NCBI GenBank assembly: GCA_017404555.1 | Contig: JAFRCD010000001.1 | Location: 15,850 to 79,849, forward strand | Direction: 5' to 3' | DNA length: 64,000 nucleotides | Origin: Bacilli bacterium | GTDB lineage: Bacteria > Bacillota_I > Bacilli_A > RF39 > UBA660 | Shown here: piece after piece, positions 12,192-55,373 of the stretch | Numbering within the stretch: the first letter of the stretch is position 1 | Layout of the letters: the number at the start of each line of letters is the position of its first letter | The notes under the pieces: model-generated | What the model was told of the DNA's origin: nothing | The model's input: the letters and a program-made list of their open reading frames with translations, nothing else | The model's database searches: none | Translations under genes and position numbers: made by a program

Positions 12192-12194
12192 TTA

Positions 12195-12232: not shown

Positions 12233-12241
12233 ATAACATTT

Positions 12242-13151: not shown

Positions 13152-13210
13152 TAAAGTAATTGCTTTTTTAAAAAAAAGATATTATACTATAATAAAGGAG
13201 GAGTAGTATT

Positions 13211-13723: not shown

Positions 13724-13728
13724 AAAGG

Positions 13729-13752
13729 GATATCAAGTGATATCTTTTTTTG
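13729..13752 (+). terminator. rho-independent terminator
   Basis: gatatca-ag-tgatatc followed by a T8 run. Confidence 0.65.
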
Positions 13753-13797
13753 AATATAACTTTTTAAATAATTAATACTAATATTAGAGGTGATTAA

Positions 13798-14265
13798 GTG
13801 AAAAAAGTACTTTTAATTATTTTGTTATTACTAGTAAGTGGGAGTTTAATAATATACTTTAGTAAAAGAGAAGTCAAAAAACCAGTAACTTTTAAGAAAG
13901 GAGTTCCTAAGACAAGTATGAAGATTAATATTACTATTGATGATAAAACTTTTGAAGGGGTATTAGAAGATAATAAAACAACTGAAGAATTTATTAAGGT
14001 TTTACCTCTAGATATTAATATGGAGGATTTAAATGATAATGAAAAGTACTATTATTTTAATACTAGTTTTCCTACTGAATCTAAAAACTATAAAGAAATT
14101 AAACGGGGAGACATAATGCTTTTTGGTGATAATTGTTTAGTTATTTTTTATGAAGATCATACTTCTTATTATGATTATACTAAGATAGGTAAGATAAATA
14201 ATACTGAAGGTCTTAAAGAAATATTAAAGAATAATAAAAATAAAATAAAAATAGAATTGAAATAA
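13798..14265 (+). CDS. hypothetical exported protein
   Basis: GTG start with an N-terminal signal/TM segment (LLIILLLLVSGSLIIY). Confidence 0.5.
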   Translation: MKKVLLIILLLLVSGSLIIYFSKREVKKPVTFKKGVPKTSMKINITIDDKTFEGVLEDNKTTEEFIKVLPLDINMEDLNDNEKYYYFNTSFPTESKNYKEIKRGDIMLFGDNCLVIFYEDHTSYYDYTKIGKINNTEGLKEILKNNKNKIKIELK

Positions 14266-14335
14266 AATGTAAAGGAAATAATTAAATTTAATTATTTTTT
14301 TCTTTTCATGATATAATTAAATAGAGGTAGATACG

Positions 14336-15271: not shown

Positions 15272-15335
15272 AAAATTATTAACTATTATTTTTTAATATT
15301 GTATAATGGAGTTAGATACAGTATAAGGAGGACAT

Positions 15336-17117
15336 ATGTGTGGAATAGTAGGATATATTGGCGATAAGGTTACCACTGAAGTTCTCTTAAAAGGAATAGA
15401 GAATTTAGAGTATCGTGGATATGATTCGGCTGGTATCGCTATTGCTAATGAAAATAAAATACAAATAATAAGAGAAGTAGGTAAAGTTTCTAAATTAAAA
15501 GAGAAACTAGAAAAAGAAAAGTTAATTACTTCTTCTTTTGGTATTGCTCATACTAGATGGGCTACTAATGGGGAAGTATCTCTTAAAAATACTCATCCTC
15601 ATAATGTAGGAAAAGTTACTTTAGTACATAATGGTATTATTGAAAATGCTGATAAACTTAAAGAAAGATTATTGAAGAAAGGTTACGTCTTTAAAAGCAA
15701 AACTGATACAGAAGTAGTCGCAGCTCTTTTAGATAATTATTTAAAGACTAAATCTGAAAAACAAGCTCTTTTATCAATGGTAAAACAATTAGAAGGTAGT
15801 TTTGCTTTAGTTATTATGATTGAGGGTAAAGATTATTTATATGCTGTTCGTAATAAATCACCTTTAGTAATTGGATCTTTAAAAGATGAAAAATATATTG
15901 CTAGTGATATACCAGCTATTGCTGAATTTACTAAAGACTATTTATTACTAGAGGATTTAGAAATTGCTAAAGTAACGAAAGAAGAAGTAGAAGTTTATGA
16001 TCAAAAGGGTAAAAAGGTAAAAAGAAAAGTTAAAAGAATAGATGTTACTAACGAGATAATTGATAAACAAGGTTATGAACATTTCATGTTAAAAGAAATT
16101 ATGGAAGAACCAAGGGTGTTACATAATCTTTTAGATATTTATTTGGACCATCTAGATGACTTAGATATTTCTCGCTATGACAATGTCCATATTGTAGCCT
16201 GTGGTTCCGCCATGTATGCGGGTATGATTGGTAAAGTTCTATTAGAAGAAAAAGCTCATATTGATGTAACAGTAGAAGTGGCTAGTGAGTACCGTTATAA
16301 GAAAAATATTTATCGGGATAAGACTTTGGTTATTTTAATATCTCAATCAGGAGAAACTGCCGATACTATAGCAGCTTTACGTATTGCTAAGGCTAATCAT
16401 CAAGATACTTTAGCTATTATTAATACCAAGAACTCTACTATTGATAGAGAAGCTGATAAAACATTTTATATTGAGGCTGGTGTTGAAGTAGCAGTTGCGA
16501 CTACTAAAGCCTATATTTTACAGGTAGCTCTTTTATCATTAATGGCTTATGTAACTGCTAAAAAGAAATCACTTTTAGATGTTGATGAGTGCATAGAAGT
16601 AATTAATCATTTTAAAGCACTACCAAGATTAATTCAAAATATTTTAAAAGATAATGAATTATATAAGAAAATAGCTAAACAATTATATAAACATGATAAT
16701 ATCTTCTTTATTGGTCGGAAGATGGATTATGCTATGTGTTTAGAAGGTAGTTTAAAACTTAAAGAAATATCTTATATTCATAGTGAAGCATATCCAGCTG
16801 GAGAATTAAAACATGGAACTATTTCTTTAATTGATAAAGGATTACCTGTTATTGCGATTATGACTGATAAGAAACTAAAAGAAAAGATGCTTTCTAATAT
16901 TAAAGAATGTGAAGCTAGATATGCTAAGATGTTTATTATAACTAGTGAGGTTATTGATGAAAAAGATACTACTATAGTAGTTAAGAAAACAGATCAGTTT
17001 ACTCAAACTCTTTTAGTAGTACCAATCTTACAAATGATCGCTTATAATGTGGCCTTATTAAGAGGTTGTGATATTGATAAGCCTAAAAACTTAGCTAAAA
17101 GTGTAACTGTCGAATAA
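15336..17117 (+). CDS. glmS: glutamine--fructose-6-phosphate aminotransferase
   Basis: The N-terminal MCGIVGYIG carries the Ntn Cys. The length (about 593 aa) and the SIS-domain C-terminus (...KSVTVE) fit. Confidence 0.9.
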   Translation: MCGIVGYIGDKVTTEVLLKGIENLEYRGYDSAGIAIANENKIQIIREVGKVSKLKEKLEKEKLITSSFGIAHTRWATNGEVSLKNTHPHNVGKVTLVHNGIIENADKLKERLLKKGYVFKSKTDTEVVAALLDNYLKTKSEKQALLSMVKQLEGSFALVIMIEGKDYLYAVRNKSPLVIGSLKDEKYIASDIPAIAEFTKDYLLLEDLEIAKVTKEEVEVYDQKGKKVKRKVKRIDVTNEIIDKQGYEHFMLKEIMEEPRVLHNLLDIYLDHLDDLDISRYDNVHIVACGSAMYAGMIGKVLLEEKAHIDVTVEVASEYRYKKNIYRDKTLVILISQSGETADTIAALRIAKANHQDTLAIINTKNSTIDREADKTFYIEAGVEVAVATTKAYILQVALLSLMAYVTAKKKSLLDVDECIEVINHFKALPRLIQNILKDNELYKKIAKQLYKHDNIFFIGRKMDYAMCLEGSLKLKEISYIHSEAYPAGELKHGTISLIDKGLPVIAIMTDKKLKEKMLSNIKECEARYAKMFIITSEVIDEKDTTIVVKKTDQFTQTLLVVPILQMIAYNVALLRGCDIDKPKNLAKSVTVE

Positions 17118-17140
17118 AGCCCTTAGGGCTTTATTCTTTT
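17116..17140 (+). terminator. rho-independent terminator
   Basis: aaagccc-tta-gggcttt followed by attctttt. Confidence 0.6.
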
Positions 17141-17177
17141 AGGGGAATCTGCTATAATAACGATAGGAAGTGATACT

Positions 17178-18443
17178 ATGTCCAAGCACTATTTAATTGC
17201 CAGAAGAAGAGATAATTCATATACAACTATTGATGTTAATGGTGGTAATAAATTAGAAGAGATTGATATCTATACTAGTTCCTTCTTTAATAAGAATGAT
17301 TTACTTCAAGAATTAGAGAAAAAGGGTTTAGAAGTTGGTGATGGAATAGATCTTTTTATAGCGACTTATTCTTCTAAATTAAAGAAAGTTAGAACTAGAA
17401 GAGTTTTATATAAAACTATTTATAATGACGAATTGCGTAGTAATGCTAAAAGAAGTTTAAAAGGACAAAGTATCGATACAGAAAGACTTTATAAACAAGC
17501 AGCTTCCTTAGATGGTAATTATCGTTCTTTAGTACATATTGGTTATTTTGATATGTATAAAGCTTTTGAAAGAATTCTAGCTAATAGAGGAAAGAAGTTA
17601 GAATATCATCATGAAAATAAATGGTTAGAAGATGATTATAAGACTTATCGTGATGTTTTAGCGTCTATACTTGTTTATCATAACTTAAATATTAAAGATT
17701 TAAATGATCATGATAGAGCTTTACAAAATAAAAGTGAATTAAAAGCTCAAAGACAGATGATTGTTGATAGTTTAACTAAGACACTAACTAGTCCTTATCC
17801 TGGACAAGAAGCTCTTGAAGTAGGTAAGAATAGGGGTAGTAAAACTTTATCTCTTTCTCAAAACAATAATAATTTTATTCATATTGATAATATTGAATTA
17901 GATAATGTTAAAGAAAATACTACTGTTGTTAAAGAAAAAAGAAAAGGACTTATTAAAGAAACTGAAGGACAAATTAATATTGATGATATGATTAGTTCGC
18001 AAAAAACAGTTTCTTTAAATAGATTATTAGGAGACGCTGTTAACTATGATGAGAATAATCGTAAAGAAGCAGAAAGTAGTATTTATCGTTTCTTAACTTC
18101 AGGTGCTTATATTAAAACAGGAACTATTTCCGAAAAAGGAAAAGAAGTTAGTCTAAATTATAAGAACTTACCTTTTGATTTAGATCCAGAAGAAAAAGCT
18201 TATTTAGAAAAGTTAAAGTCATCTAAAGTATTATTTAGAAGAGTAAATGAATATCATCGTTATCAAGATACTAGTTTTATAGCGCAAGTAGATAAATTTA
18301 CTTGTGCTGATGAAATTAGAGCTAGATTGAAGAAGTTATCACTTAGATCAATTAATAATCTAGCTAAGTTCTGTGTATTATATAAAGATTGCTATGATAA
18401 AGCAATTAGTAAGGAAGAGGTTAAAGATGGTTATCGCCGATAA
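17178..18443 (+). CDS. hypothetical protein
   Basis: 421-aa ORF with no recognisable motif. Confidence 0.5.
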   Translation: MSKHYLIARRRDNSYTTIDVNGGNKLEEIDIYTSSFFNKNDLLQELEKKGLEVGDGIDLFIATYSSKLKKVRTRRVLYKTIYNDELRSNAKRSLKGQSIDTERLYKQAASLDGNYRSLVHIGYFDMYKAFERILANRGKKLEYHHENKWLEDDYKTYRDVLASILVYHNLNIKDLNDHDRALQNKSELKAQRQMIVDSLTKTLTSPYPGQEALEVGKNRGSKTLSLSQNNNNFIHIDNIELDNVKENTTVVKEKRKGLIKETEGQINIDDMISSQKTVSLNRLLGDAVNYDENNRKEAESSIYRFLTSGAYIKTGTISEKGKEVSLNYKNLPFDLDPEEKAYLEKLKSSKVLFRRVNEYHRYQDTSFIAQVDKFTCADEIRARLKKLSLRSINNLAKFCVLYKDCYDKAISKEEVKDGYRR

Positions 18444-19293
18444 GTGGGAAGATTATGAAATATTAGATGCTTCAAAAGGAGAAAAACTAGAAAGATGGGG
18501 TAAATACCATCTTTTAAGACCAGATCCTCAAATTATTTGGGATCAAGGAGATTTATCTAAAAGATATAGTTCTATAATTGATGCTCACTATTTACGTAGT
18601 TCTTCTGGTGGTGGTCATTGGGAGAATTTAAAAACTATTCCTGAGAACTGGATAATTTCTTATAAAGATTTAAAGTTTAATATTAAGCAAATGGGCTTTA
18701 AACATACAGGACTTTTCCCTGAACAAGCTTATAATTGGGATTTTATGATTAAAAAGATCAAAGAAAGTAAAAGAAAAGTAAAAGTCTTAAATCTTTTTGC
18801 GTATACTGGAGGAGCTACTGTAGCTTGTCTTTCCGCAGGAGCGTCTGTTGTTCATGTTGATTCTTCTAAGGGAATGGTTGACTGGTGTAAAGAAAATGTT
18901 AAACTTAATAATTTAGAAGATAGAGAAATAAGATATTTAGTTGATGATGTTATTAAGTTCGTTAAAAGAGAAATTAGAAGAGGGCATAAATACGATTGTA
19001 TTATTATGGATCCTCCTAGTTATGGTAGAGGTACTAATAAAGAAGTATGGCAATTAGAAAAAGATCTTTTTAACTTAGTAGAGCTATGTATGGAAGTTTT
19101 AAGTGATGATCCACTATTCTTCTTAATTAATTCTTATACAACAGGTATATCTCCTAAAGTATTAGAAAATATTTTAAAAGTAACAGTTAATAAAAAACAT
19201 CCAGGTAAAGTAGAAAGTGATGAAATAGGATTACCAATTAAAGAAGAACTAGTTTTACCTTGTGGTATTTATGGGCGTTGGGAACATGAGTAA
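18427..19293 (+). CDS. class I SAM-dependent methyltransferase (RlmI/YwbD-like rRNA methyltransferase catalytic domain)
   Basis: LNLFAYTGG (motif I) and IIMDPPSYGRG (motif IV). The start is the internal ATG at 18427, which follows GGAAGAGG. Confidence 0.7.
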   Translation: MVIADKWEDYEILDASKGEKLERWGKYHLLRPDPQIIWDQGDLSKRYSSIIDAHYLRSSSGGGHWENLKTIPENWIISYKDLKFNIKQMGFKHTGLFPEQAYNWDFMIKKIKESKRKVKVLNLFAYTGGATVACLSAGASVVHVDSSKGMVDWCKENVKLNNLEDREIRYLVDDVIKFVKREIRRGHKYDCIIMDPPSYGRGTNKEVWQLEKDLFNLVELCMEVLSDDPLFFLINSYTTGISPKVLENILKVTVNKKHPGKVESDEIGLPIKEELVLPCGIYGRWEHE

Positions 19294-19948
19294 GCTAAAT
19301 GTTTTATATGAAGATAATCATGTTATCGTAGTAGAAAAACCAGTTAACGTTCTAAGTCAAGCTGATAGTACCAAAGATATTGATATGCTTACGTTAGTAA
19401 AAGAATATATTAAAGAGAAATATCATAAACCAGGTAATGTCTACTTAGGATTAGTTCACCGTCTAGATCGCCCTGTTGGAGGAATTATGGTTTTTGCTAG
19501 AACTTCTAAAGCGGCATCCCGCTTATCTGAACAAGTACGAACTAATAAAATAGAAAAAGTTTATCTAGCGATTGTTAAAGGTATTTTAAAAGAAAAAGAA
19601 GGTACTTTTAAAGATAAGATTAAGAAAATAGAAAATGGTAATTCTATTATTGCTGAAGATGGAAAAGAAGCAATTCTTAATTACCAGGTTCTATCTGAAA
19701 AAGAAGGACTATCATTAGTAAAAGTAAAACTAATAACTGGTCGCCATCATCAAATAAGAGTACAATTTTCATCAAGAGGATATCCTTTATGTGGTGATCA
19801 AAGATATGGTGACGAGGATAAAACACAGATTGCTTTATATGCCTATGAACTTTCGTTTTACCATCCAACGACTAAAGAAAAGCTAACATTTACTTTACTT
19901 CCTAAAGGTAATTGGTGGACAGAATTTACACTGTCAAAATATGTCTAA
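19286..19948 (+). CDS. RluA-family pseudouridine synthase
   Basis: LVHRLDRPVGG contains the catalytic Asp motif. LYEDNHVIVVEKP is a typical N-terminus. Confidence 0.8.
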   Translation: MSKLNVLYEDNHVIVVEKPVNVLSQADSTKDIDMLTLVKEYIKEKYHKPGNVYLGLVHRLDRPVGGIMVFARTSKAASRLSEQVRTNKIEKVYLAIVKGILKEKEGTFKDKIKKIENGNSIIAEDGKEAILNYQVLSEKEGLSLVKVKLITGRHHQIRVQFSSRGYPLCGDQRYGDEDKTQIALYAYELSFYHPTTKEKLTFTLLPKGNWWTEFTLSKYV

Positions 19949-19954
19949 TGAAAT

Positions 19955-19981
19955 AAATATTTGCAAATGCAAATATTTTTT
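19955..19981 (+). terminator. rho-independent terminator (perfect 11-nt inverted repeat plus T-run)
   Basis: aaatatttgca-aa-tgcaaatatttttt. Confidence 0.6.
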
Positions 19982-20022
19982 GTTATTATATATGTTAGAT
20001 AAGAATAAAGGAGAATGGCTAT

Positions 20023-20934
20023 ATGAAAAACTTTGATTTTAGTTGGTTTTTAACAATACCAGGAATGTTGATTACCGGAGGAGTATTATTATTAATTATT
20101 GCCTTGATAATATTTATTGCTACTTCAGGTAAGAAAGATAAAAAAGATAAGAAGAAAGGGAAGGAAGAAGTACCAGTGGATAATAATATGATGAATGCTG
20201 CACCAGCAGCCGGAGCTGTAGCTCCAAATCCAGAAATTGCAACTATGGATGTACCAGCTGATACACCAGCTGAAGCACCAACAGAGGCTCCAGCAATCCC
20301 AATTGAGGTACCTGATCCAACTACTGAAGCTACTCCAGAGCCAGCAGAACCATTTGCTGTACCTGAGGCTACACCTACTCCTGAAACACCAGCAGCAGAG
20401 ACACCTGCTGTAGAAACTCCAGTAGTAGAAGCAGCACCAGTAGAAACTCCTGCTGTAGAAACACCAGTAGTGGAAGCTGCTCCAGTAGAGGCAGCACCAG
20501 TAGAAGCTACTCCAGTTGAAACTCCTGTTGTAGAGGCAGCGCCAGTAGAGACTCCAGTAGTAGAAGCTGCTCCAGTGGAGACACCAGTAGCTGATGCTCA
20601 AGTACCAGAAGTACCAGTAGTAGAAACACCAGTAGTAGAAGCTGCTCCAGTAGAGGCAGCACCAGTAGAAGCTACTCCAGTTTATGGCGGTGCTGATCCG
20701 AGTGTAAGCAATGTAGATGTTACTCCAGCTGAAGAGCCAAAACAAATATATGGTGGCGCTAATCCTGCTGATAATACCGGTGTAGTAGAAGCTACTCCAG
20801 TAGAAACTCCAGTAGTAGAGGCAGCACCTGTAGAAGCCGCTCCAGCAGCAACTCCAGTAACACCAGTTAGTGTTCAACCAGTTGGTGAACCAAGTTCAAT
20901 CCCAACAGTTGTTCAAAACGAAACAAATAATTAA
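20023..20934 (+). CDS. membrane-anchored Pro/Ala/Val/Glu/Thr-rich repeat protein
   Basis: N-terminal TM (LTIPGMLITGGVLLLIIALIIFI) is followed by a low-complexity region with (E/A)(T/A)PVVEAAPV repeats. Confidence 0.65.
   Translation: MKNFDFSWFLTIPGMLITGGVLLLIIALIIFIATSGKKDKKDKKKGKEEVPVDNNMMNAAPAAGAVAPNPEIATMDVPADTPAEAPTEAPAIPIEVPDPTTEATPEPAEPFAVPEATPTPETPAAETPAVETPVVEAAPVETPAVETPVVEAAPVEAAPVEATPVETPVVEAAPVETPVVEAAPVETPVADAQVPEVPVVETPVVEAAPVEAAPVEATPVYGGADPSVSNVDVTPAEEPKQIYGGANPADNTGVVEATPVETPVVEAAPVEAAPAATPVTPVSVQPVGEPSSIPTVVQNETNN
20380..20680 (+). repeat. imperfect tandem repeats of about 30 nt encoding ETPVVEAAPV units
   Basis: Recurrent gaaactcc(a/t)g(t/c)(a/t)gtagaagc(a/t)gc(a/t)ccagta blocks are visible in the DNA. 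Confidence 0.7.
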
Positions 20935-24833: not shown

Positions 24834-24884
24834 AAATAAAAAGAAAAAAGTTATATAATTGAATATATAATGAGGAGAATCAGT

Positions 24885-27800
24885 ATGAAAAAACGCCAAA
24901 ATATATTTTTATTTATAATAGCAGGATTATTATTTTGTGGAGGATTGACGGGCTTTATTATGACTTTAAGAGCATCGCTAGCTGAAGTGGGTACCAACAC
25001 TTTATATGGTGCTATTGCAGCTGATCCTTTAACAGCAGTTTATGAAGGAGAACATCAAGATAGTTTAGATGGTTCTGGAAATGAAGCAATCCATTATTTC
25101 ACAGGTAGTGATGAGATAGTAAATCACAATAATGTAAAGCTAGGGGATACTTGTTGGCAAGTATTAAGAACTACTGATACTGGTGGAGTTAAAATGATTT
25201 ATAATGGTCCTTATGATGAAACCAACAAATGTAACTCTTCAAGAGGAACTCATAAAGGTATAATTAATACAAAAGGAGAGACAACAGATTTATCTGGTGG
25301 AGCTTATTTATACGGTTATGGTTTTACTTATAATGAGTCAACGGGAGAATTTACTTTAATTAATCCAATCAGTGCAACTTGGAGTAGTTCAACATATAAA
25401 AGTTTAGAGGGCAAATATACTTGTATGAGTACTTCTGATACTTGTACAACCATTTATAATATTCATAGTTATAGTAGTGATACAAGCGCTAAAACAACTA
25501 GTTATACAATCGATGATACCCACTATTCTCAAATTGGAACAAGTCCCTTCAATATAAATTCCAATCTGGCTATGGGCGGATATATGACTAATAGTTCCTA
25601 TTCCACTACGGCAACTTCTTATACAGCGCAAGCAGAACAGGTTTTACAGCAAAGCAGCAGTTTGTTTACAAATAGTTATTACTATGGATCAAGCATAAAA
25701 ACTAATGGTAGTCTCTATAATATAGGAGGAACAATAAGTAGAAATCCGGGAGCAGGATTATATACAGTCTTGTCTTCTAGTCTTTATGGTTCAACAGCAT
25801 ATTATATAGTCGGTAAAAGCGGTTCAGTATTTTATTACTTAACTTTAACTGGCGGTAAATCGCTAGCTGCAACTGAGAAATACTACACGTATGGGGATAG
25901 TTATACAGGAAATACTATAGCTAATCCTTCAAGTTTAAAATCAACAAATTTCTTTTCTAGGCATAATAGTCTTAGAAATAAATTCTATTGTTCTGGCGCA
26001 ACAAGCACTGCTTCTTGTACTCTAAAATATGCTACAAACACAACACCAGCAACAATAAGTTATATTTCAGCCAGTGGTACAAAATATGGTAATAAAGTAA
26101 CCTATGCTAATGGAAAATATACTTTGGTAGGTGTAGTAACTGGTTTTCCAGATAAGAACCACCATTATACATGTAATAATGGAGCAACAACTTGTGCAAC
26201 GGCATACTATGTAAATTCTTTTAGTGGAAATGCTTTGCGCCGAATAACACTAACTGGCGGAAAAAACATCAATAACGTTATTGAAGAAATGTATGATTCT
26301 AATTCCGTAAACCACTATAATTCATCGATAAAAAGTCAGATAGAAGGTTGGTATAGAGCAAAACTAGCTAATTATACAAAGTATTTTGAGGACGCTATAT
26401 ATTGTAACGATCGAACTAGAGCCAATCAATCAGAAAGTGGATTTGGCCCAAGTGGAGGAAGTTTAACAAAATCATTATATTTTACTGATCGAAATGACAA
26501 TACAGCTTTGAAATGTACTAAGCAAACTGATCAATTTGCAGTTGGTAATATTAAGGCTAAGAATAAATATCCTGTGGGATTAGCAGCAGCTGCAGAAATG
26601 AATTTATTAGATAATGATGCGGCCAGGACGACAGGAGAAAGCTATTGGTTAGGATCACCTTATGCTGCTAGTATTTATGCTAGCAATGGTTATATCAATA
26701 ATGAGGGAAGTGTTATATCTTATAATACAGGTGAACCTCGCGGGACTCGTCCAGTAGTATCTTTGAAAGCTGGCACAAAATATATATCAGGAACTGGTTC
26801 GCAAACAGATCCATATGTAATTGATATAAGGCCAGTCATAACTACTAGCGTTAAACATGGTACTATAACCGAAACTGATCAAGTAGAAGAAGGTTCCAAC
26901 AAGACAATTAGTTATAGCCCTGATAGCGGTTATCAGTTAAAGAGTATTAAAGTAGATGGTGAAGAGGTAAGTATTACTACATATGCTAATAGTTATGCAT
27001 TTAATAATATAACTGAAGATCATGCTATAGAAGTAGAATACTGGAAACCAACAATAACTACAAGCGTTATTCACGGAACAATAACTGAAACATCAGATGT
27101 GGATTCTGGTGAAGATAAAACAATTAATTATAGCCCTGATAGTGGTTATGATTTGAAAAAGATTACAGTAGATGGTGTAGATGTAAGTATTAGTGCTCAT
27201 GCTAGTAGCTATACATTTACTAATGTAACCGAAGATCATTCAATTGAAGTTGAGTATTGGAAACCAACAATAACTACTTCTGTTATTCATGGAACAATAA
27301 CTGAAACATCAGATGTAGATTCTGGTGAAGATAAGACAATTAATTATAGTCCAGATACGGGGTACAGATTAGAAAGTATAAAAGTAGATGGCGTAGAAGC
27401 TAGTATAACAGCTTACCCTAATAGTTATACCTTTAACAATGTAACAGAGGATCATACCATAGAAGTAGTATATGTCAATAAAAAAGTAGGCTATATAGTA
27501 AACTATTTAGAAAATGAAACTGATAAAGTCTTACATACTCAAAAACGAGAGGAAAATGCTTACTACGGTGATGAAATAATCAGCATACAAGAGATGATTG
27601 ATATTGATAATTATCACTTCGTTGATTTCAACAAAGAACGAATAGTACTAGAGGAAAATATCAATGATAATATCATTAATCTATACTATGAAAAAAATAG
27701 TAAAGAAGAAGTAATTACTGAACATAGTATGGTTCTTACTAGTGAAAAAGCAAAAATAACAAGTGAAGAAGACAAAGTTGATTATCAAATTAAATATCGA

Positions 27801-28325
27801 GTAGGTTTAGAAAACTATGTTGGTAAGGTCAAAGCTAAAATCACAGCATATTTACCATATCAAATAGATCTTGATGAATCTGATTTGGATGGTGGTAAGT
27901 ATAATAAAGATTATCGAACTATTACTTGGGAAGGAACAGTTGATATTGATAGAGAAAATAATCAAATTAGTTTTGATAAGGATATCGAATTAGTATATAA
28001 AGGTTACGATCTAAGTAAAAATGAACTTATTAATGTAGTTGCTGGCGAAATTACTTTAAAAGATTTAGATGATTATACTGAAGAAGTCTATGATACTAAA
28101 ACTACGAGTGTTGATATTAAAAAAGACGTTAAGCCAGATGTTAAACCTGATGATAAAGGAACAAATAATAAAGATAAGTCTAGTTCAACTAATAAAATAG
28201 TATCTGATCGAGTAAATAGTCCAAATACTACAACTAGAAATATGTTCTTATATATAATTGTTATGATGATATCTATCGTATGCTTCGGATTAGGTGTTAA
28301 AAATTATAAACAAATAAAGAGTTAA
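24885..28325 (+). CDS. large surface protein with N-terminal TM/signal anchor, three tandem 72-aa beta-sandwich-like repeats and a C-terminal TM anchor
   Basis: About 1147 aa. The N-terminal segment is FLFIIAGLLFCGGLTGFIM. The C-terminal segment is MFLYIIVMMISIVCFGLGV followed by KNYKQIKS. Repeats of the form KPTITTSVIHGTITETSDVDSGEDKTINYSPDSGY... are present. Confidence 0.7.
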   Translation: MKKRQNIFLFIIAGLLFCGGLTGFIMTLRASLAEVGTNTLYGAIAADPLTAVYEGEHQDSLDGSGNEAIHYFTGSDEIVNHNNVKLGDTCWQVLRTTDTGGVKMIYNGPYDETNKCNSSRGTHKGIINTKGETTDLSGGAYLYGYGFTYNESTGEFTLINPISATWSSSTYKSLEGKYTCMSTSDTCTTIYNIHSYSSDTSAKTTSYTIDDTHYSQIGTSPFNINSNLAMGGYMTNSSYSTTATSYTAQAEQVLQQSSSLFTNSYYYGSSIKTNGSLYNIGGTISRNPGAGLYTVLSSSLYGSTAYYIVGKSGSVFYYLTLTGGKSLAATEKYYTYGDSYTGNTIANPSSLKSTNFFSRHNSLRNKFYCSGATSTASCTLKYATNTTPATISYISASGTKYGNKVTYANGKYTLVGVVTGFPDKNHHYTCNNGATTCATAYYVNSFSGNALRRITLTGGKNINNVIEEMYDSNSVNHYNSSIKSQIEGWYRAKLANYTKYFEDAIYCNDRTRANQSESGFGPSGGSLTKSLYFTDRNDNTALKCTKQTDQFAVGNIKAKNKYPVGLAAAAEMNLLDNDAARTTGESYWLGSPYAASIYASNGYINNEGSVISYNTGEPRGTRPVVSLKAGTKYISGTGSQTDPYVIDIRPVITTSVKHGTITETDQVEEGSNKTISYSPDSGYQLKSIKVDGEEVSITTYANSYAFNNITEDHAIEVEYWKPTITTSVIHGTITETSDVDSGEDKTINYSPDSGYDLKKITVDGVDVSISAHASSYTFTNVTEDHSIEVEYWKPTITTSVIHGTITETSDVDSGEDKTINYSPDTGYRLESIKVDGVEASITAYPNSYTFNNVTEDHTIEVVYVNKKVGYIVNYLENETDKVLHTQKREENAYYGDEIISIQEMIDIDNYHFVDFNKERIVLEENINDNIINLYYEKNSKEEVITEHSMVLTSEKAKITSEEDKVDYQIKYRVGLENYVGKVKAKITAYLPYQIDLDESDLDGGKYNKDYRTITWEGTVDIDRENNQISFDKDIELVYKGYDLSKNELINVVAGEITLKDLDDYTEEVYDTKTTSVDIKKDVKPDVKPDDKGTNNKDKSSSTNKIVSDRVNSPNTTTRNMFLYIIVMMISIVCFGLGVKNYKQIKS
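26826..27480 (+). repeat. three tandem repeats of about 216 bp inside the surface-protein gene
   Basis: Repeat units 2 and 3 are nearly identical at the DNA level (aaaccaacaataactac...gaagttgagtattgg). Unit 1 is more diverged. Confidence 0.8.
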
Positions 28326-31698: not shown

Positions 31699-33498
31699 AT
31701 GATACGGAAAAACAAAAAAGGATTTACAATGGTTGAACTTTTAGCAACCATAGCTATAATAGCTGTTTTAACAACGCTAGCTATAGTGGGGGTAAACGGA
31801 GTAAGAAATTCCCTTAAGAGTAGTTATTACAAGCGAGTAGAAAAGCTGGTAGTAGCAGCGGGAATGGATTACTATAATGACCATAAAGGAGAACGACCTA
31901 TTAGAATTGGTCAATCTAGTCAAGTGGCACTATCAAAGTTGGAAGGTCAAGCTTATATTGAAGATGTTAAAGACTATACTAAACAATCATGTGATGCTAC
32001 TGAAAGTTATGTTTCAATAACTAAGACAAGTGAAAAAAAATATGAATATGATACATATTTAATATGTCCAGACCGTCTTGAAGATGATGTGCCCGAAGAC
32101 AAAAAAATAGATCCCAATATAGGAGAGGCAACAGACTGTAGTGACATGTTATCATCTGATGCCACGGATTCTGAATGGTCACATACAAGTACAAACTTAA
32201 GAGCAACCTTAACACCTGATATTACAGAATATATACTTCAAAAGAAAACTAGTAAGGGATGGGAAACTATTGGAGAGACTCATAAAGCTGACTATACACT
32301 TGCTATAAGTGATAATGGAATTTCTACTTATCGAGCAAGAGGAACAGGGACTAATGGTAAGTATTGTACTAGTAATACTGTTAATATAAAAATAGATAAA
32401 GATAATCCAAGATGTGGAGATGTAACTGGAGAAAGTACCAGTTGGACAAAGAGCCCTAGAACAATATCAATTGCTTGTTCAGATGGTGAAAAAGAAAGTG
32501 GTTGTGTTGAACCTACATATCAACATACTTTCTCAGCAGATACTAAAGTTGGAACTATAACTATTGCTGATAAAGCTGGTAATACTACTAATTGTCCTGT
32601 TAATGCTTATGTTGATACAACACCTCCAACTTGTGGTACTGCAACAGGAACAAGTACTAGTTGGACAAAGAGTAGTAGAACAATAACTCAACCTTGTACA
32701 GATAATTTAAGTGTTTGTAATAGTGTTCCTGCCACTTATTCAACAACTACTAAAACAGCTTCAGTAACAGTAACTGATAGTGCTGGAAATTCAAAAACAT
32801 GTCCAGCTTATAATGTTTATGTTGATACAACAGCTCCAACTTGTGGAAGTGCATCAGGTGGTGGTACTTCTTCAGCGCATAAGTTTGGTAATGTAACAGT
32901 TTCAGTAGGATGCTCTGATAGCCATAGTGGTTGTGGAAGTAGTTCATACAGTAAAACTTTCTCACCAACTACTACGACTAGTACAATTGCGATAGCTGAT
33001 AAAGCTGGTAATAGTAGAAGCTGTTCTGTTAATGTTTATAGTTATCCATGTAGTGCTCCAACAGTAAGTGGTTCAGTAGCATCAACTAGAAAATGTCCTT
33101 ATAATGGTGAAACTTTATCAAATACTAAAATAGTAACCTTTACAGTTGGTGGTTGTAGAAATGGTATGACAAGCTCTAATAGTTATATATGCTATTATAA
33201 TAAATCGTCAACAACAGCTTCTGGATGGTCAAGTCAACAAAAACGTCATGATAAAATTGTTTCAATTGGTTGTGGTAAAGTAAAATGTGGTTATCATTCA
33301 AGTAACTGGCATGGTAGCTGCATTAGTTCTAGTAACCATGGTGCTTTCACAGGTAGTGGTACTAAATGGAGTCTAAACCGTTCAACAGAGTGTGCTTACA
33401 TTAAAGCAGTAAGTAGTGGTGGTACTAAAGAGATGACTTGTAACATGAGTACTGGAAAATGTGTAACTGGTGTATCTGCTATGATAAGTAACTGTTAA
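31699..33498 (+). CDS. large type IV pilin-like protein (prepilin N-terminus plus three Cys-rich Ig-like modules), paralog A
   Basis: Class III signal KKGFTMVELLATIAIIAVLTTLAIVG (cleavage G|FTxxE). Repeated modules of about 65 aa carry paired Cys and TDxAGN-type motifs. Confidence 0.7.
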   Translation: MIRKNKKGFTMVELLATIAIIAVLTTLAIVGVNGVRNSLKSSYYKRVEKLVVAAGMDYYNDHKGERPIRIGQSSQVALSKLEGQAYIEDVKDYTKQSCDATESYVSITKTSEKKYEYDTYLICPDRLEDDVPEDKKIDPNIGEATDCSDMLSSDATDSEWSHTSTNLRATLTPDITEYILQKKTSKGWETIGETHKADYTLAISDNGISTYRARGTGTNGKYCTSNTVNIKIDKDNPRCGDVTGESTSWTKSPRTISIACSDGEKESGCVEPTYQHTFSADTKVGTITIADKAGNTTNCPVNAYVDTTPPTCGTATGTSTSWTKSSRTITQPCTDNLSVCNSVPATYSTTTKTASVTVTDSAGNSKTCPAYNVYVDTTAPTCGSASGGGTSSAHKFGNVTVSVGCSDSHSGCGSSSYSKTFSPTTTTSTIAIADKAGNSRSCSVNVYSYPCSAPTVSGSVASTRKCPYNGETLSNTKIVTFTVGGCRNGMTSSNSYICYYNKSSTTASGWSSQQKRHDKIVSIGCGKVKCGYHSSNWHGSCISSSNHGAFTGSGTKWSLNRSTECAYIKAVSSGGTKEMTCNMSTGKCVTGVSAMISNC

Positions 33499-33583: not shown

Positions 33584-35395
33584 ATGAAAAAGAAAAAAGG
33601 GTTTACAATGGTTGAACTTTTAGCAACCCTAGCTATAATAGCTGCTTTAACAACTCTAGCTATAGTAGGAGTAAATACAGTAAGAACAGCTCTTAAAAAC
33701 AGTTATTATAATAGAGTAAAAAAATTAGTAATAGCGGCGGGAATTGATTATTATAATGATCATAAGAGTGAACGACCTGTTAGAATCAATCAAACTAATA
33801 AAGTGGCACTTATAGACTTACAAAATGAAGATTATATTGAAAAGGTTAAGGATTATGCCAAGGAAGTGTGTGATCCTGATAATAGTGAGCTTATTACTGA
33901 TAAAAGTTATGTTGTAATAACTAAAAAAAGCACGAAAAAATATAGTTATCAAGTTTATTTAAATTGTCCTAATTATAGTGATGGTGATCCTCAAGAAGAA
34001 AATCCAAATCCAAATGTAGGAGAAGCAACTGACTGTAGTAATATGTTAAGATCAAATGCTACGGGTTCTGGTTGGTCACATACAAGTATAGACTTAACAG
34101 CAACCTTAACACCAGATATTACAGAATATATAATTCAAAAGCAAAATGGTGACAAATGGGAAACTATTGGTTCAACCCATACTGGCGATACTACACTTAC
34201 TATAAGTGATAATGGAGTTTCTACTTATCGAGCATTAGGAACAGGAACTAATGGTAAGTATTGTACTAGTAATACTGTTAATATACAAATAGATAAAGAT
34301 AATCCAAGATGTGGTGCAATAGAAGGAGCAAGCACTAATTGGACAAAGAGTCCTAGACTAATTAAAATTAAATGTTCAGATGGTGAAAATGAAAGTGGTT
34401 GTGTTCAAGATGAATATCAACACACATTCTCTGCAGATACCAAAGTTGGAACTATAACTATTGCTGATAATGCTGGAAATACCACTGATTGTCCTGTTAA
34501 TGCTTATATTGATACAACACCTCCAACTTGTGGAACTCCAACCGGAACAAGCACTAGTTGGACAAAGAGCCCTAGAACAATAACTCAGCCTTGTAGTGAT
34601 AATGTAAGTGGTTGTAATAGTGTTCCTGCCACTTATTCAACAACTACTAAAACAGCTTCAGTAACAGTAGTTGATGGTGCTGGAAATTCAAAAACATGTC
34701 CAGCTTATGATGTTTATGTTGATACAACACTTCCAACCTGTGGAACAGCAACTGGTGGTGGTACTTCTTCAGCGCATAAGTTTGGTAATGTAACTGTTTC
34801 TCAACCATGTTCTGATAGTCATAGTGGTTGTGTAAAAACTCCATATAGTAAAACCTTCTCACCAACTACTACGACTAGTACAATTGCGATAGCTGATAAA
34901 GCTGGTAATAGTAGAAACTGTACTGTTAACGTTTATAGTTATCCGTGTGGTGCTCCAACAGTAAGTGGCTCAGTAGCAACCACTAGAAAATGTCCTTATA
35001 ATGGTGAAACTTTATCAAATACTAAAACAGTAACCTTTACAGTTGGTGGTTGTAGAAATGGTATGACAAGCTCTAATAGTTACATATGTCACTATAACAC
35101 CAAATCAACAGTTGCTACTGGCTGGTCGAGCGATCAAAAACACCATAATAAAATTGTGGAAATCGGTTGTGGTAAAGTAAAATGTGGTTATCATTCAAGT
35201 AACTGGCATGGTAGTTGTAAAAGTTCTACCAATCATGGGGCTTTCACAGGTAGTGGTACTAAATGGAGTCTTAATCGTTCAACAGAGTGTACATACATTA
35301 AAGCGGTAAGTGATGGTGGTACTAAAGAAATGACTTGTAATATGGGTACAGGAAAATGTGTAACAGGCGTATCTAATATGATAAAGAACTGCTAA
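33584..35395 (+). CDS. large type IV pilin-like protein, paralog B
   Basis: Same prepilin N-terminus (KKGFTMVELLATLAIIAALTTLAIVG). It is collinear with paralog A, and long DNA stretches are near-identical. Confidence 0.7.
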   Translation: MKKKKGFTMVELLATLAIIAALTTLAIVGVNTVRTALKNSYYNRVKKLVIAAGIDYYNDHKSERPVRINQTNKVALIDLQNEDYIEKVKDYAKEVCDPDNSELITDKSYVVITKKSTKKYSYQVYLNCPNYSDGDPQEENPNPNVGEATDCSNMLRSNATGSGWSHTSIDLTATLTPDITEYIIQKQNGDKWETIGSTHTGDTTLTISDNGVSTYRALGTGTNGKYCTSNTVNIQIDKDNPRCGAIEGASTNWTKSPRLIKIKCSDGENESGCVQDEYQHTFSADTKVGTITIADNAGNTTDCPVNAYIDTTPPTCGTPTGTSTSWTKSPRTITQPCSDNVSGCNSVPATYSTTTKTASVTVVDGAGNSKTCPAYDVYVDTTLPTCGTATGGGTSSAHKFGNVTVSQPCSDSHSGCVKTPYSKTFSPTTTTSTIAIADKAGNSRNCTVNVYSYPCGAPTVSGSVATTRKCPYNGETLSNTKTVTFTVGGCRNGMTSSNSYICHYNTKSTVATGWSSDQKHHNKIVEIGCGKVKCGYHSSNWHGSCKSSTNHGAFTGSGTKWSLNRSTECTYIKAVSDGGTKEMTCNMGTGKCVTGVSNMIKNC

Positions 35396-39411: not shown

Positions 39412-39655
39412 AATAATAGCATTTATTTTAGTAGTTATAAATATAAGAATTAATGCTTGGTAAAAAACAATAATAAAAATTATTGGTATTAAAGAAGAAA
39501 AGAAAGAACTATTTCTTCTTTTTTGTTTACAATATGAACAGCGACAAAAGAAAGAATGCTTATTGTTCATAAGGATCACCTAGTATATTTTATGTTATTA
39601 CTTTAGATAATTTACAATTACTGAAAAATACCTTATAATAAAATTGGTGATGAAA

Positions 39656-40015
39656 ATGAATAGAAAAGGATTTACATTAGTTGAAGTTATTGCGGTAGTC
39701 GCTATTATTGGTTTTTTAGCAATAATAACCATTCCAGCTATTAGTAGATTATCAGCTGGTAATAATTCCAAAACAGTTGAGACTTTCGAAAAAACATTAA
39801 AAAATAGTGCTAAAGCCTATATTAATGTGACTAACCAAACAATTACAAGTACTCCTCAGAATATAACCTGTACAACTTTACAAGGTGCTGGATATATCAA
39901 GCAGTGTACAGTTAGAGGATATAACTGTAATAATCCATATGTAGAAGTACGTGCAGATTCTGATCGTACAAAATCTTATATTTATACGGTTCATGGTAAT
40001 TGTACAAAAGCGTAA
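39656..40015 (+). CDS. small type IV pilin/pseudopilin (ComGC-like)
   Basis: MNRKGFTLVEVIAVVAIIGFLAIITIPAI is a class III prepilin signal plus hydrophobic helix. About 120 aa with two C-terminal Cys. Confidence 0.75.
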   Translation: MNRKGFTLVEVIAVVAIIGFLAIITIPAISRLSAGNNSKTVETFEKTLKNSAKAYINVTNQTITSTPQNITCTTLQGAGYIKQCTVRGYNCNNPYVEVRADSDRTKSYIYTVHGNCTKA

Positions 40016-40079
40016 TTAATTGACAAATAACACTTTTTCTGGTATAATATAGCCACTATTTTGATTGGGGGGATTTTAG

Positions 40080-41093
40080 ATGAAAAAGAGAATGAGTAAA
40101 ATACTAAATTTAGTACTAGTTGGAATAATTAGTATGTTGTTTGCTCTAGGGAATGCCAAAGCATTAGACAACACTGTTACTGTTGGTGTATCTTCTTCTT
40201 TAACACCTTATGTAGCTGACGTTCATGTTGCCAAGATGCCACTAGTTGGTGGTGGATATGCTTATTGTACTGAACTAGCTAAGATTACACCATCTAATAT
40301 AACAGAAAAGTTAGTACAAGAATCAGATGCTGGAATTACTTATATTCTAGTAAATGGTTATCCAAGGAGAAACATTACTGGTAATGGAGACTATGACTAT
40401 TACATTACTCAAACAGCTATTTGGTGGTATTTAGATGATATCAACGGAACTGATTACTTATCATTAGCTTTTAAAACTGATGGTAAAGATGAATTTGGTT
40501 TAAGACCTTATGTTAAAGAGTTAGTTGAAGCAGCTAAAGAAGCTAAGAGTTCAGGCTATGGATATGGTTCAGTAGTACTTAATCCTAAATCTTCTAGTTT
40601 AGAATTATCTAGTGATAAAAAGTACTATGAAACAGTAATTGAACCTGTATTTACTAATGTTTTAGGAACTTATACTGTTAGTGTTAACTCTGATAAAGCA
40701 ATTATTACTGATTTAAATAATAATGCTAAGAATACTTTCAATGTAACTGAAAGTTTCAAGATTAGAGTTGCTAATGGTAAATATGATCCAAGTAAGATTA
40801 AAGTAACAGTTTCAGCTAATAATACTTATGAAAAAGCCTTCTATTATGCAGCTGAGAATCCTGCTATCCAAGGAGTAGTAGTATTACAAGATATCGCTGA
40901 AGAAGTAACAGCTTCATTAGAATTAGCTATGAATCCAACTTGTGAAAACGGTGGATTAACTGATGGTTGTGAAGCAGCTGAAATAGTAGATGTTCCAAAT
41001 ACTAATACTAATACTATTCTTTACATCATTGGTGCAGTTATTCTAGTATCTTCTACTGGATACGTATTCTATAATGCAAAACTTAAGAAATAA
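40080..41093 (+). CDS. cell-surface protein with a TQxA (thioester-domain-like) motif and a C-terminal sortase-B-type sorting signal
   Basis: Signal peptide; Cys63 in YAYCTE; YITQTAIWWY (TQxA[IV]W motif) about 48 aa downstream. The C-terminus has VPNTN followed by a hydrophobic segment and a KLKK tail. Confidence 0.5.
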   Translation: MKKRMSKILNLVLVGIISMLFALGNAKALDNTVTVGVSSSLTPYVADVHVAKMPLVGGGYAYCTELAKITPSNITEKLVQESDAGITYILVNGYPRRNITGNGDYDYYITQTAIWWYLDDINGTDYLSLAFKTDGKDEFGLRPYVKELVEAAKEAKSSGYGYGSVVLNPKSSSLELSSDKKYYETVIEPVFTNVLGTYTVSVNSDKAIITDLNNNAKNTFNVTESFKIRVANGKYDPSKIKVTVSANNTYEKAFYYAAENPAIQGVVVLQDIAEEVTASLELAMNPTCENGGLTDGCEAAEIVDVPNTNTNTILYIIGAVILVSSTGYVFYNAKLKK

Positions 41094-41712
41094 TGAAACA
41101 AGAAGAATAACTAATAGTAAGATCGCTTTTATAGCCAGTATCCTTACTATAATAGGATTATTCTTCTTATCATATAATTACATAATGGCTAAAAAAGCCG
41201 TTGTCTATGAATACATTAATGGAATCTATGTAGAAGAAAAACAAGATAATGATGTAGAAGTAGTTACCGAGAATAAAAAAGAAGGGGAAAAGGAAGAAGT
41301 AGAAGAAAATGATAGTGATTATATTGGCTATCTTAAGATACCAAAAATCGGGTTTGAAAAAGGTTTAGTTGACAAGAATTCAGAAGAAAATGATGTAGAA
41401 AAGAACCTTTATATCGCACCAGTATCTGCTTATCCAAATGTTAAAGGTGGTAATTTAATTATTGCTGGTCATTCAGGGACTGGATGGAAAGCCTTTTTCA
41501 ATGATTTATACAAATTAAGATTAACTGATCAAGCTATTGTAACTTATAAGAACAAAGAATATGTTTATCAACTTATGGATTTTTATAAACAACCTAAGAA
41601 TGGAAAGGTAACAATTAAAAGAAACAAATCAAAGACAACACTTACTCTTATAACGTGTACTAATGGTGATAGTACAACTCAGACTGTTTATATATTTGAA
41701 TTAAAAGAATAG
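41074..41712 (+). CDS. sortase-like cysteine transpeptidase
   Basis: N-terminal TM, the His motif LIIAGHSG and the Cys motif TLTLITCT. The conserved Arg expected about 10-13 residues after the Cys is absent. Confidence 0.6.
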   Translation: MQNLRNNETRRITNSKIAFIASILTIIGLFFLSYNYIMAKKAVVYEYINGIYVEEKQDNDVEVVTENKKEGEKEEVEENDSDYIGYLKIPKIGFEKGLVDKNSEENDVEKNLYIAPVSAYPNVKGGNLIIAGHSGTGWKAFFNDLYKLRLTDQAIVTYKNKEYVYQLMDFYKQPKNGKVTIKRNKSKTTLTLITCTNGDSTTQTVYIFELKE

Positions 41713-41749: not shown

Positions 41750-42901
41750 ATGATAAAAAACTTATCTTTTAGTGACCTTTTAGCGAATGTTGGTGGTGTT
41801 ATATCATCTTCATCGTTAAACATTATTTTAATTATCATATTTGTTATATTAGGATACTTATTAATCAAGTCTGATAATAAATATAATAATTATAAAAGAT
41901 ATGGTCTAATAGGTGTAATAATGATTATCTTAGGAGTTTTAATCTATTATAATAATGGTTTATTTAAAACTCTTGATTATCTAGCTAATAATTTATTCAT
42001 GATATTTTACTTCCCTAATTTATTAGCTTATATAATTGGTTTAATTGTTTTAAATATTGTTGTCTTTAAGACAATTACTAATAGAAAAACAGATAAATTA
42101 TTAAAAGTTGTAAATACTATTGTCTATTTAATAATTATGTATATGTCCCTTTTATTAATAGGAATTATCTCTAAAAGTAAACTAAATGTTTTTGCTTTAG
42201 ATGATATCTATAAAAATAGTAAAGCTTTATCTTTAATTAGACTTAGTTCCATTATCTTTATTGTTTGGTTATTATTTATTATTCTTTACAAAATATATTT
42301 GAACTATTTAAATAAGAAAGATCTTAAGCTACCAGCTTATAAGAAAAGCGAAAATAAGATCAAACCTAATTATCAAGTTAAAGCTAGAAGTTTACCTGAT
42401 TATATTAAAGAGATAGATTATCCAAAGATAGTAGAAAGAGATTACAAAGAATACAACATTAAAGAAGAAGAGTTAACTAATGAATTTGAAAGACAATTAT
42501 CTTTAGATGACTACAAACTATTAGTAAAATTACTATTAGATCATAAGACTAAAGAAGAAATGAGAGAAAAGGTTTCTTTCAAGAACCTAGATGATATTGC
42601 GACTATTAAAGCAAGAATTGAACAATCACAAAATGAAGATTCGGGGGTGGAAAACATGTTAGAAGAAGTAGAAAGAATTGTAACTGGTCCAACATTAGAA
42701 CAAGTTATGCCAATATATAAACCAGAACAAGAAATGATTTCTAAACATGACGAAGAAGTTATCACTAAAACAGTAGAAGCTATTGAAGAAAACTTATATC
42801 AAGCTAGAAGAAATAGTAATGTAATCGAAGAAGTAGAAAAAGATGATGACTCTTTGAAACAAGCTAAAATTGCCGAACTATTGAGATTATATCAAGAATA
42901 A
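41750..42901 (+). CDS. hypothetical polytopic membrane protein with an acidic C-terminal domain
   Basis: At least five hydrophobic segments in the first 190 aa, followed by a charged coiled-coil-like tail. Confidence 0.5.
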   Translation: MIKNLSFSDLLANVGGVISSSSLNIILIIIFVILGYLLIKSDNKYNNYKRYGLIGVIMIILGVLIYYNNGLFKTLDYLANNLFMIFYFPNLLAYIIGLIVLNIVVFKTITNRKTDKLLKVVNTIVYLIIMYMSLLLIGIISKSKLNVFALDDIYKNSKALSLIRLSSIIFIVWLLFIILYKIYLNYLNKKDLKLPAYKKSENKIKPNYQVKARSLPDYIKEIDYPKIVERDYKEYNIKEEELTNEFERQLSLDDYKLLVKLLLDHKTKEEMREKVSFKNLDDIATIKARIEQSQNEDSGVENMLEEVERIVTGPTLEQVMPIYKPEQEMISKHDEEVITKTVEAIEENLYQARRNSNVIEEVEKDDDSLKQAKIAELLRLYQE

Positions 42902-53331: not shown

Positions 53332-53391
53332 TTCTTTCTTTTTTAATGCAAAATTATTAAAAATTTGGTAAAATTAATATAGGTGATAAAC

Positions 53392-55373
<1,982 letters not shown>

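Follow-up and report, generated by a model that had tools for sequence, protein, structure and literature searches.

The 64,000-nucleotide stretch of DNA analyzed here, referred to below as the window, comes from the genome assembly of an RF39 Bacilli bacterium and has a G+C content of approximately 27%, with almost all of its genes on the + strand. Two overlapping genes on that strand encode a surface protein with a thioester domain (TED) and a membrane-anchored sortase in which glutamine occupies the site of the catalytic arginine. A first-pass annotation made from the sequence had called three open reading frames at this locus, for a small pilin, for the TED protein and for the sortase, and all three are real and lie where it placed them. 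The TED gene occupies positions 40080..41093 and the sortase gene positions 41074..41712, the two overlapping by exactly 20 nucleotides as had been noted, and a gene for a polytopic membrane protein (41750..42901, +) lies directly 3′ of the sortase gene.

Sortases are textbook His-Cys-Arg enzymes, known both as antivirulence drug targets and as protein-ligation tools, in which the Arg is treated as universal and necessary. The 212 amino acid product of the downstream gene consists of an N-terminal transmembrane helix, an acidic disordered linker (residues 60-79) and a catalytic domain (residues 81-212), and it matches the Pfam Sortase family PF04203 above its cut-off (E=2.1e-16). The hydrophobic residues 16-36 form the membrane anchor, and the AlphaFold2 model has a helix at residues 14-59. 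The mean predicted local distance difference test (pLDDT) score of this model is 88, rising above 93 over residues 81-212, and a Foldseek search with it returned 129 sortase-type matches in the PDB at E<=1e-3, with approximately 132 residues superposing on class C, D, A and E structures at a root-mean-square deviation of 2.6–3.5 Å. Among the NCBIfam models only the generic sortase model passes. The class-specific models fall far under their cut-offs, the best being those for class D (NF033746, 43.2 bits vs 165; NF058671, 57.8 bits vs 140), and no class B model is among the NCBIfam matches. A class C, or pilus, sortase can be set aside: the lid of that class, which covers the active site and bears a DP[W/F/Y] motif, is absent, the pre-catalytic residues 60–79 being a disordered acidic linker with pLDDT below 50, the class C model NF033745 scores only 50 bits against a cut-off of 160, and the YPK pilin motif occurs in just 12 of 120 substrate homologues.

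To describe the conservation of the sortase we used an alignment of 63 sequences, in which only nine columns are invariant: N106, P121, H133, G135, F142, Y165, G177, C195 and Q203. These include both of the motif residues on which the sortase assignment had originally been based, the catalytic His133 (IAGH133SG, codon 41470..41472) and the catalytic Cys195 at the end of β7 (TLITC195, codon 41656..41658), and the assignment is upheld. A further motif, Lys175-x-Gly177 (41596..41604), is specific to the family, with Lys in 62/63 and Gly in 63/63 sequences; in the same columns, at the start of the β6/β7 loop, canonical sortases including that of the Clostridium perfringens plasmid pCPPB-1 have P-x-D. 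Lys175 is near-invariant but probably lies far from Cys195.

The remaining invariant residue of catalytic interest is Gln203 (codon 41680..41682), eight residues after the Cys and second in the predicted strand β8, at the site of the canonical catalytic Arg. No Arg is found within 17 residues after Cys195. Gln203 is present in all 63 aligned sequences, and all 120 close homologues (52–93% identity) end in TCTNxDxTTQT[V/I]YI with the Gln in frame. The pattern TC-x(4–8)-Q-[T/I/L]-[V/I] is likewise found in 150/150 of the best 150 representatives of clusters at 50% identity, which share 32–54% identity with the query. Among the 148 distinct sortases from fetched loci 147 carry the Gln, encoded by CAA in 111 and by CAG in 35, and the use of both codons indicates that selection acts on the amino acid. 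The first-pass annotation had remarked that the Arg normally following the catalytic Cys was missing. This is true and not an artefact of the reading frame, since homologues from independent assemblies keep the Gln. The compensating Arg that had been envisaged was sought by alignment and none was found; Arg183 (KRN or YRN) was considered as an obligatory substitute and rejected because it is conserved in only 46/63 sequences, and the Arg position itself holds the invariant Gln.

The equivalence of Gln203 and the catalytic Arg was traced through known sortases. In the alignment of the family profile to Bacillus anthracis SrtA (2KW8), Gln203 is matched to the catalytic Arg, and the Cys-to-Arg spacing of class A, C and D sortases is +7 to +9, a range within which the +8 of Gln203 lies. 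In a pCW3-type plasmid sortase (TLITC-INHAK-QR-LIL) the Arg, counted ungapped from the Cys, stands in register with the family Gln, coinciding with that of a divergent branch described below (TLITC-RHNTNK-Q-IVI). A hidden Markov model alignment to Staphylococcus aureus SrtA ended before β8 because of the long β7/β8 loop of that enzyme. We found no description of an Arg-less or Gln-type sortase in open-access papers. A natural strain variant was also observed: the sortase at L144:5974-6639, compared with loci L138-L142, has Arg exactly at the Gln position through a change of CAA to CGA (KQIIV to KRIIV), and as there are seven nucleotide differences across the gene this is probably a real allele and not a copied read error.

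The protein encoded upstream has 337 amino acids, comprising a signal peptide (residues 1-28) and a TED body (approximately residues 31-290) with no stalk. It matches the Pfam TED family (PF08341) with E=4.7e-10 and 40.3 bits against a cut-off of 22. A single-sequence search of the PDB gave nothing useful and a family profile was required, so we built one from an alignment of 30 homologues; this matches B. anthracis BaTIE (6FWV) with E=1e-64. The family Cys and an invariant Gln align with Cys71 and Gln266 of BaTIE, with an identical Cys-Gln spacing in the alignment (195 residues in the chain), and it is between these two BaTIE residues that a thioester is seen in the crystal. In the window protein the equivalent residues are Cys63 (YAYC63TE, codon 40266..40268), nearly invariant with at least 90% conservation, and Gln264 (AENPAIQ264GVV, codon 40869..40871), invariant in the alignment and located at the tip of a long β-hairpin. 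YC63TE fits the [YFL]C motif of the bond-forming Cys, and IQ264GVV fits the ΦQζΦΦ strand that in TEDs carries the bond-forming Gln as a weak motif in a later β-strand (Miller et al. 2018, PMC6194298). On this evidence Cys63 and Gln264 are predicted to form the thioester.

The description of this protein as a thioester-domain adhesin with a signal peptide, the YAYCTE Cys, a TQTAIW motif and a sortase sorting signal thus proved right, and the pairing of residues proposed with it did not. The first-pass annotation had taken Gln111 of TQTAIW (T110-QTAIW115, codon 40410..40412) as the partner of Cys63 and had commented on an unusually short Cys-Gln spacing of about 48 residues. The motif is the TQxxΦW auxiliary motif, whose Gln and Trp merely lie beside the bond and can be dispensed with in its formation (PMC6194298), and the Gln111 column holds Ser in one homologue (P0145). 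With Gln264 as the partner the distance from Cys63 is 201 residues and the oddly short spacing disappears, the characterized Class II TEDs having spacings of 195 (BaTIE), 204 (EfmTIE86), 171 (SaTIE) and 188 (TIEpLS20).

The AlphaFold2 model of the TED protein has a mean pLDDT of 85, exceeding 90 over residues 31–290, and displays the thioester-domain fold that structure prediction had been expected to reveal or refute: a β-barrel, a three-helix bundle, a β-sandwich with strands over residues 164-257 and a long hairpin (240-257/266-284) with Gln264 at its tip. Foldseek places the Class II TEDs 6FWV and 6FWY at the top of the matches, with Class I TEDs far weaker, and the β-sandwich insertion and long hairpin, or slipknot, that mark Class II are present in the predicted structure. 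The TED core is therefore an ordinary Class II TED and a member of a known family. What distinguishes this copy is the absence of a CnaB/SpaA stalk, the protein ending approximately 15 residues after the TED, compared with orthologs of approximately 507 amino acids that have two SpaA/CnaB domains.

The C-terminus carries the sorting motif V305-P-N-T-N309 (40992..41006), with cleavage presumed to occur after Thr308. It is followed at 41007..41090 by a hydrophobic membrane-retention segment and basic tail (…ILYIIGAVILVSSTGYVFYNAKLKK) that ends in KLKK and coincides with a helix at residues 312-336 of the model. The motif takes the form V-P-[N/D]-T-x in 76/77 orthologs from species-level genomes and in most of the 120 homologues; the fifth residue varies between A, G, S, N, D and K, so that only V-P-[N/D]-T is conserved. 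The earlier proposal of a sorting signal here, made up of VPNTN, a hydrophobic stretch and KLKK, is sound, and its comparison with a sortase-B-type NPxTN signal is ruled out by the variable fifth residue together with the lack of a class B model among the NCBIfam matches. Motifs of class D substrates are LPNTA, LPDTS and LPDTA, and judged from its sequence the V-P-[N/D]-T-x signal appears closest to the class D LPNTA/LPDTS pattern, with Val for Leu. Just 5′ of the signal (40935-40975, +) is a short Cys-x10-Cys element, TCENGGLTDGC, and some long orthologs (e.g. P0124 and P0146) have a comparable CENGG…C element ahead of their signal, which suggests a possible conserved disulfide mini-loop beside the cleavage site. 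Elsewhere in the window, at 24870-28325 (+), a 1151 amino acid protein that contains InlB B-repeat (Flg_new_2) domains has at its C-terminus …VNSPNTTTRN followed by a hydrophobic segment and KNYKQIKS, making it a second candidate x-P-N-T sortase substrate, approximately 12 kb from the only sortase of the window.

To see how widely the gene pair occurs we searched one genome per GTDB species, in which 571 stretches encode a relative, and kept 80 loci. Nearly all of the 571 come from metagenome-assembled genomes of uncultured gut Bacilli, labelled Bacilli, Mollicutes/Tenericutes, Erysipelotrichaceae, Candidatus Faecimonas or Clostridium sp. CAG:451. The order of TED gene, overlapping sortase gene and polytopic membrane protein gene, usually followed by pcrA, is found in 77/80 loci, and in the other three the TED gene is missing because the contig ends there. 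The membrane protein gene is 3′ of the sortase gene in 80/80 loci, mostly after a gap of 10–30 nucleotides. Its product has an N-terminal region of approximately 215 amino acids with multiple transmembrane segments, an invariant FPN and a variable charged C-terminal region; searches gave no reliable family match, with DUF6057 in 2/23 orthologs and under its cut-off, and no PDB relative. The window copy is set among housekeeping and sporulation genes (lon, spoVID-like, ysxE-like and pcrA) that are syntenic across the 80 species and include no transfer genes. The view that the TED protein and the sortase form a dedicated, non-canonical pair is supported. The pair and the membrane protein gene are probably transcribed together from an extended -10, sigma-70-type promoter at 40020..40048 (+), a perfect 12/12 match to TTGACA-17-TG-TATAAT that lies 32 nucleotides 5′ of the TED start codon and is the probable promoter of the operon.

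A divergent branch of the sortase family (32–41% identity), found in metagenomes, shows a different setting. Here the sortase gene again overlaps the 3′ end of a gene for a large TED protein, of 820–1300 amino acids, which ends in (E/K)VP[N/D/S]T-x, a transmembrane segment and KKRKK, and the other neighbours are quite different. The membrane protein is absent. One of these sortases occurs with identical sequence on 492 contigs. It lies in a block, at approximately 4400-20651 of loci L170-L172, that encodes ParA, ParB, a TED/SpaA adhesin, this Gln-sortase, a 2452 amino acid SNF2-type helicase, helix-turn-helix proteins, a DUF3848 protein and a DUF3991/Toprim primase. The insertion of the block at three different chromosomal sites marks the block as an integrative, conjugative-type element. 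Because the TED protein and the Gln-sortase stay together with different neighbours in this branch, the conserved unit consists of TED adhesin and Gln-sortase, and the membrane protein goes with it only in the chromosomal lineage. The phage collection held no relative. PLSDB held only Arg-type relatives, at no more than 33% identity, and the closest Arg-containing relative in annotated plasmids is a pCW3-type “class D sortase” at 33% identity. In C. perfringens pCPPB-1 (L169) an 879 amino acid TED/CnaB adhesin without a sorting signal (888-3527) precedes a class D sortase gene (4947-5579) by approximately 1.4 kb; this sortase reads …AKQRLIL, with a Gln directly before the catalytic Arg.

We consider the locus to be a surface-display module, in which a covalent TED adhesin is anchored by a Gln-type sortase through the normal sortase reaction, with a probability of about 0.7. 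The domain identities, the predicted fold, the residue equivalences, the conservation of the motifs, the coupling of the genes and the breadth of the clade are established by the analysis above, and on them we build a scheme of how such a module would operate. The first product would be secreted by the Sec pathway and form its internal Cys63–Gln264 thioester, and the V-P-N-T-N signal, membrane-spanning stretch and basic tail would hold it in the membrane until the sortase acts. Cys195 would then attack the carbonyl of Thr308 to give an acyl-enzyme, from which the adhesin would be transferred to the amine of a cell-wall precursor, and during this reaction the carboxamide of Gln203 could donate the hydrogen bond, to substrate or oxyanion, for which the Arg guanidinium is normally responsible. 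Once anchored, the thioester would be able to react with an amine on its target and so bind covalently. Formation of the thioester, the site of cleavage, attachment to the wall, the ability of the Gln enzyme to catalyse the reaction and the target of adhesion are inferred here.

As an adhesin module this is ordinary, and what is unusual and apparently undescribed is the His-Cys-Gln clade of sortases. By fold, Cys and His the enzyme is a member of the sortase superfamily, and it departs from one defining feature, the Arg, in a manner conserved across a large clade. A broader proposal, which we hold tentatively and rate somewhat below even odds, is that the Gln-type enzymes may be a distinct and undescribed sortase class, His-Cys-Gln, that would act as fully active transpeptidases specific for the V-P-[N/D]-T-x signal of Class II TED adhesins and would have spread by vertical descent among uncultured gut Bacilli and by horizontal transfer on integrative conjugative-type elements.

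Several points weigh against the main reading of the locus as a surface-display module. Of the two sequence alignments to solved sortases, the one with C. perfringens SrtD (4D70) is out of register by a single residue at the Gln, with no gap. Reviews give His-Cys-Arg as common to all sortase classes, and Arg197 is required for efficient catalysis in S. aureus SrtA (Marraffini et al. 2004). With Arg described as universal and needed, the activity of the Gln enzyme remains a prediction. A TED anchored to the wall without a stalk might sit buried within it, and every identified carrier is an uncultured organism. Finally, the second protein in the window with an SPNTT tail means that the sortase may not be exclusive to the TED protein; the presence of that protein is compatible both with a sortase dedicated to the adhesin and with one that serves as the general sortase of the cell. 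On the side of tolerance at the Arg site, Bentley and co-workers are said to have found in 2008 that S. aureus SrtA kept its activity when Arg197 was replaced by uncharged citrulline.

Among the alternatives the one that retains most weight, although we regard it as unlikely, concerns the purpose of the module and not its chemistry. The module could serve mainly in contact between bacteria, in mating-pair formation or aggregation, and not in adhesion to a host, with the chromosomal copy being a domesticated cassette from a conjugative element. The divergent Gln-sortase and TED pair does lie in an integrative element, inserted at three different sites, that also encodes ParA/ParB, an SNF2-type helicase and a DUF3991/Toprim primase. 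The closest relatives that carry an annotation are the class D sortases encoded on pCW3-type conjugative plasmids of C. perfringens, which adjoin a TED/CnaB adhesin. The pCW3-type SrtD is required for efficient plasmid transfer, and the Class II TED adhesin of pLS20 is required for conjugation in liquid. The window copy itself argues in the other direction, lying as it does among housekeeping and sporulation genes in a synteny shared by 80 species and without transfer genes, and the target of a thioester is not readable from sequence.

It is less probable still that the sortase-like protein has been catalytically weakened or repurposed through loss of the Arg, to become a releasing hydrolase, a slow single-turnover enzyme or a non-enzymatic partner. 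The described universality of the Arg and its requirement for efficient catalysis would favor such a loss, as would the lack of an invariant compensating Arg (Arg183, 46/63) and the change of P-x-D to K-x-G, which points to a substrate groove that has been remodelled too. However, at least 150 clusters at 50% identity show no change of His, Cys or Gln while the synonymous codons vary, the substrate retains both its conserved motif for cleavage and the complete signal for membrane retention, and the pair persists in two unrelated genomic settings, a pattern not expected of a dead enzyme.

We give very little credence to the idea, put forward in the first-pass annotation, that a type IV pilin and the TED-sortase pair are linked in function. 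The prepilin open reading frame (39644-40015, +) encodes 123 amino acids from a TTG start or 119 from the ATG at 39656 (MNRKGFTLVEV), with a class III signal (G|FTLVE) and four C-terminal Cys. Its description as a ComGC-like pilin holds in part: the prepilin signal is genuine, passing both Pfam N_methyl PF07963 (E=1.2e-6, 28.3 bits vs a cut-off of 21.2) and TIGR02532 (27.2 vs 16.3), but the ComGC equivalog model NF040999 scores 36.7 bits and is under its cut-off of 75. The gene is adjacent to the TED gene on the same strand at an intergenic distance of 64 nucleotides, and four near-identical metagenome contigs preserve this arrangement. Against a link, none of the 77 loci that contain a TED ortholog has a prepilin-like open reading frame upstream of the TED gene (0/77), nor do L005-L008, and the 64-kb window contains no pilus assembly genes of the PilB/C/D/T type (ATPase, platform protein or prepilin peptidase). 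The two genes also have separate promoter-like sites, that of the pilin gene being TTTACA-17-TATAAT at 39611..39639 (+), an 11/12 consensus match only, and two further orphan prepilin genes are scattered approximately 4–8 kb upstream. The prepilin is best read as a small orphan and an unrelated neighbor of the TED-sortase module, and the juxtaposition as coincidental. The orphans upstream are tandem paralogues of approximately 600 amino acids (31699-33498 and 33584-35395, +) that begin like prepilins (KKGFTMVELL), contain Ig-like (Big_3_2) repeats and are rich in Cys towards the C-terminus, which makes them giant pilin-like proteins with no pilus machinery nearby.

There remains the notion that a canonical Arg is concealed by an indel in the assembly. 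Read in the +1 frame after TLITCTNGD, the 3′ end of the sortase gene (41668-41700) gives VQLRLFIYLN and a stop, an Arg followed by a hydrophobic strand that resembles a canonical β8, which made it necessary to check for a frameshift. The window does contain at least one probable error of this kind: ligA (53380-55373, +), for an NAD-dependent DNA ligase, is split over two frames, with an N-terminal part of approximately 100 amino acids ending in …ERIKKKR and a stop, probably because the assembly has a homopolymer indel in this essential gene. A hidden Arg is nonetheless refuted, as the in-frame Gln ending (TTQT[V/I]YI in the close homologues) is kept in 120/120, 150/150 and 147/148 sequences from independent assemblies and the likeness of the +1 frame is coincidental. 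A further observation in the window is a defence island at 3481-12191 (+), with a D12 adenine methyltransferase, an AlwI-type restriction endonuclease, a GmrSD-type endonuclease, two small open reading frames and an AAA_13 ATPase.

Uncultured bacteria of the gut share the Gln variant by the hundreds, as do some mobile elements, and thioester adhesins that bind covalently and have sortases of their own are common in abundant uncultured gut Bacilli and on their mobile elements. A large Gln clade under clear purifying selection, always beside a substrate that bears the motif, amounts to a natural experiment on the third catalytic residue, in which charge is set against hydrogen bonding. If the reading of these enzymes as active sortases is true, the “universal” catalytic Arg would be dispensable, and enzymes specific for VP[N/D]T would offer a new recognition motif for orthogonal ligation based on sortases.

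A precedent for a Gln in this role is offered by the papain-family proteases, Cys/His enzymes in which Gln19 is the oxyanion-hole donor. Its carboxamide stabilizes the oxyanion as that of Gln203 might, although the fold is unrelated and the comparison is one of analogy only. Among sortase systems, Streptococcus pyogenes Cpa is a TED adhesin of the pilus tip with a VPPTG signal and a dedicated non-housekeeping sortase encoded nearby. The TED structures of Cpa match the window TED model weakly in Foldseek. Cpa differs in having Class I TEDs and in being polymerized onto a pilus, whereas the window TED has no pilin partner and its sortase is lid-less.

The closest counterparts of the adhesin are the Class II TIE adhesins BaTIE (6FWV), EfmTIE86 (6FWY), SaTIE and TIEpLS20, with which it shares the fold, the Cys, the bond-forming Gln and the TQxxΦW motif. 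Its Cys-Gln spacing of 201 residues is within the 171-204 of the characterized TIEs, and like BaTIE, SaTIE and EfmTIE86 it has a sortase-type C-terminal signal. It is unlike them in lacking a CnaB/SpaA stalk, in having VP[N/D]Tx and not LPxTG as the signal and in having a sortase of its own.

The closest counterparts of the sortase are the class D enzymes, which include B. anthracis SrtC with the substrates BasH and BasI (LPNTA), Bacillus subtilis YhcS with YhcR (LPDTS), C. perfringens SrtD (4D70) and the pCW3-type SrtD, and which supply the best-scoring NCBIfam models and are among the best PDB sequence matches. Common to both are a compact lid-less catalytic domain of approximately 130 amino acids, a substrate motif of the form x-P-[N/D]-T-small and a dedicated substrate gene adjoining that of the sortase, the neighbor on pCW3-type plasmids also being a TED/CnaB adhesin. 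The window sortase differs from class D in scoring 43-58 bits against cut-offs of 140-165, in recognizing, as its substrate suggests, a motif whose first residue is Val and not Leu, and in having K-x-G for P-x-D and an invariant Gln for the catalytic Arg.

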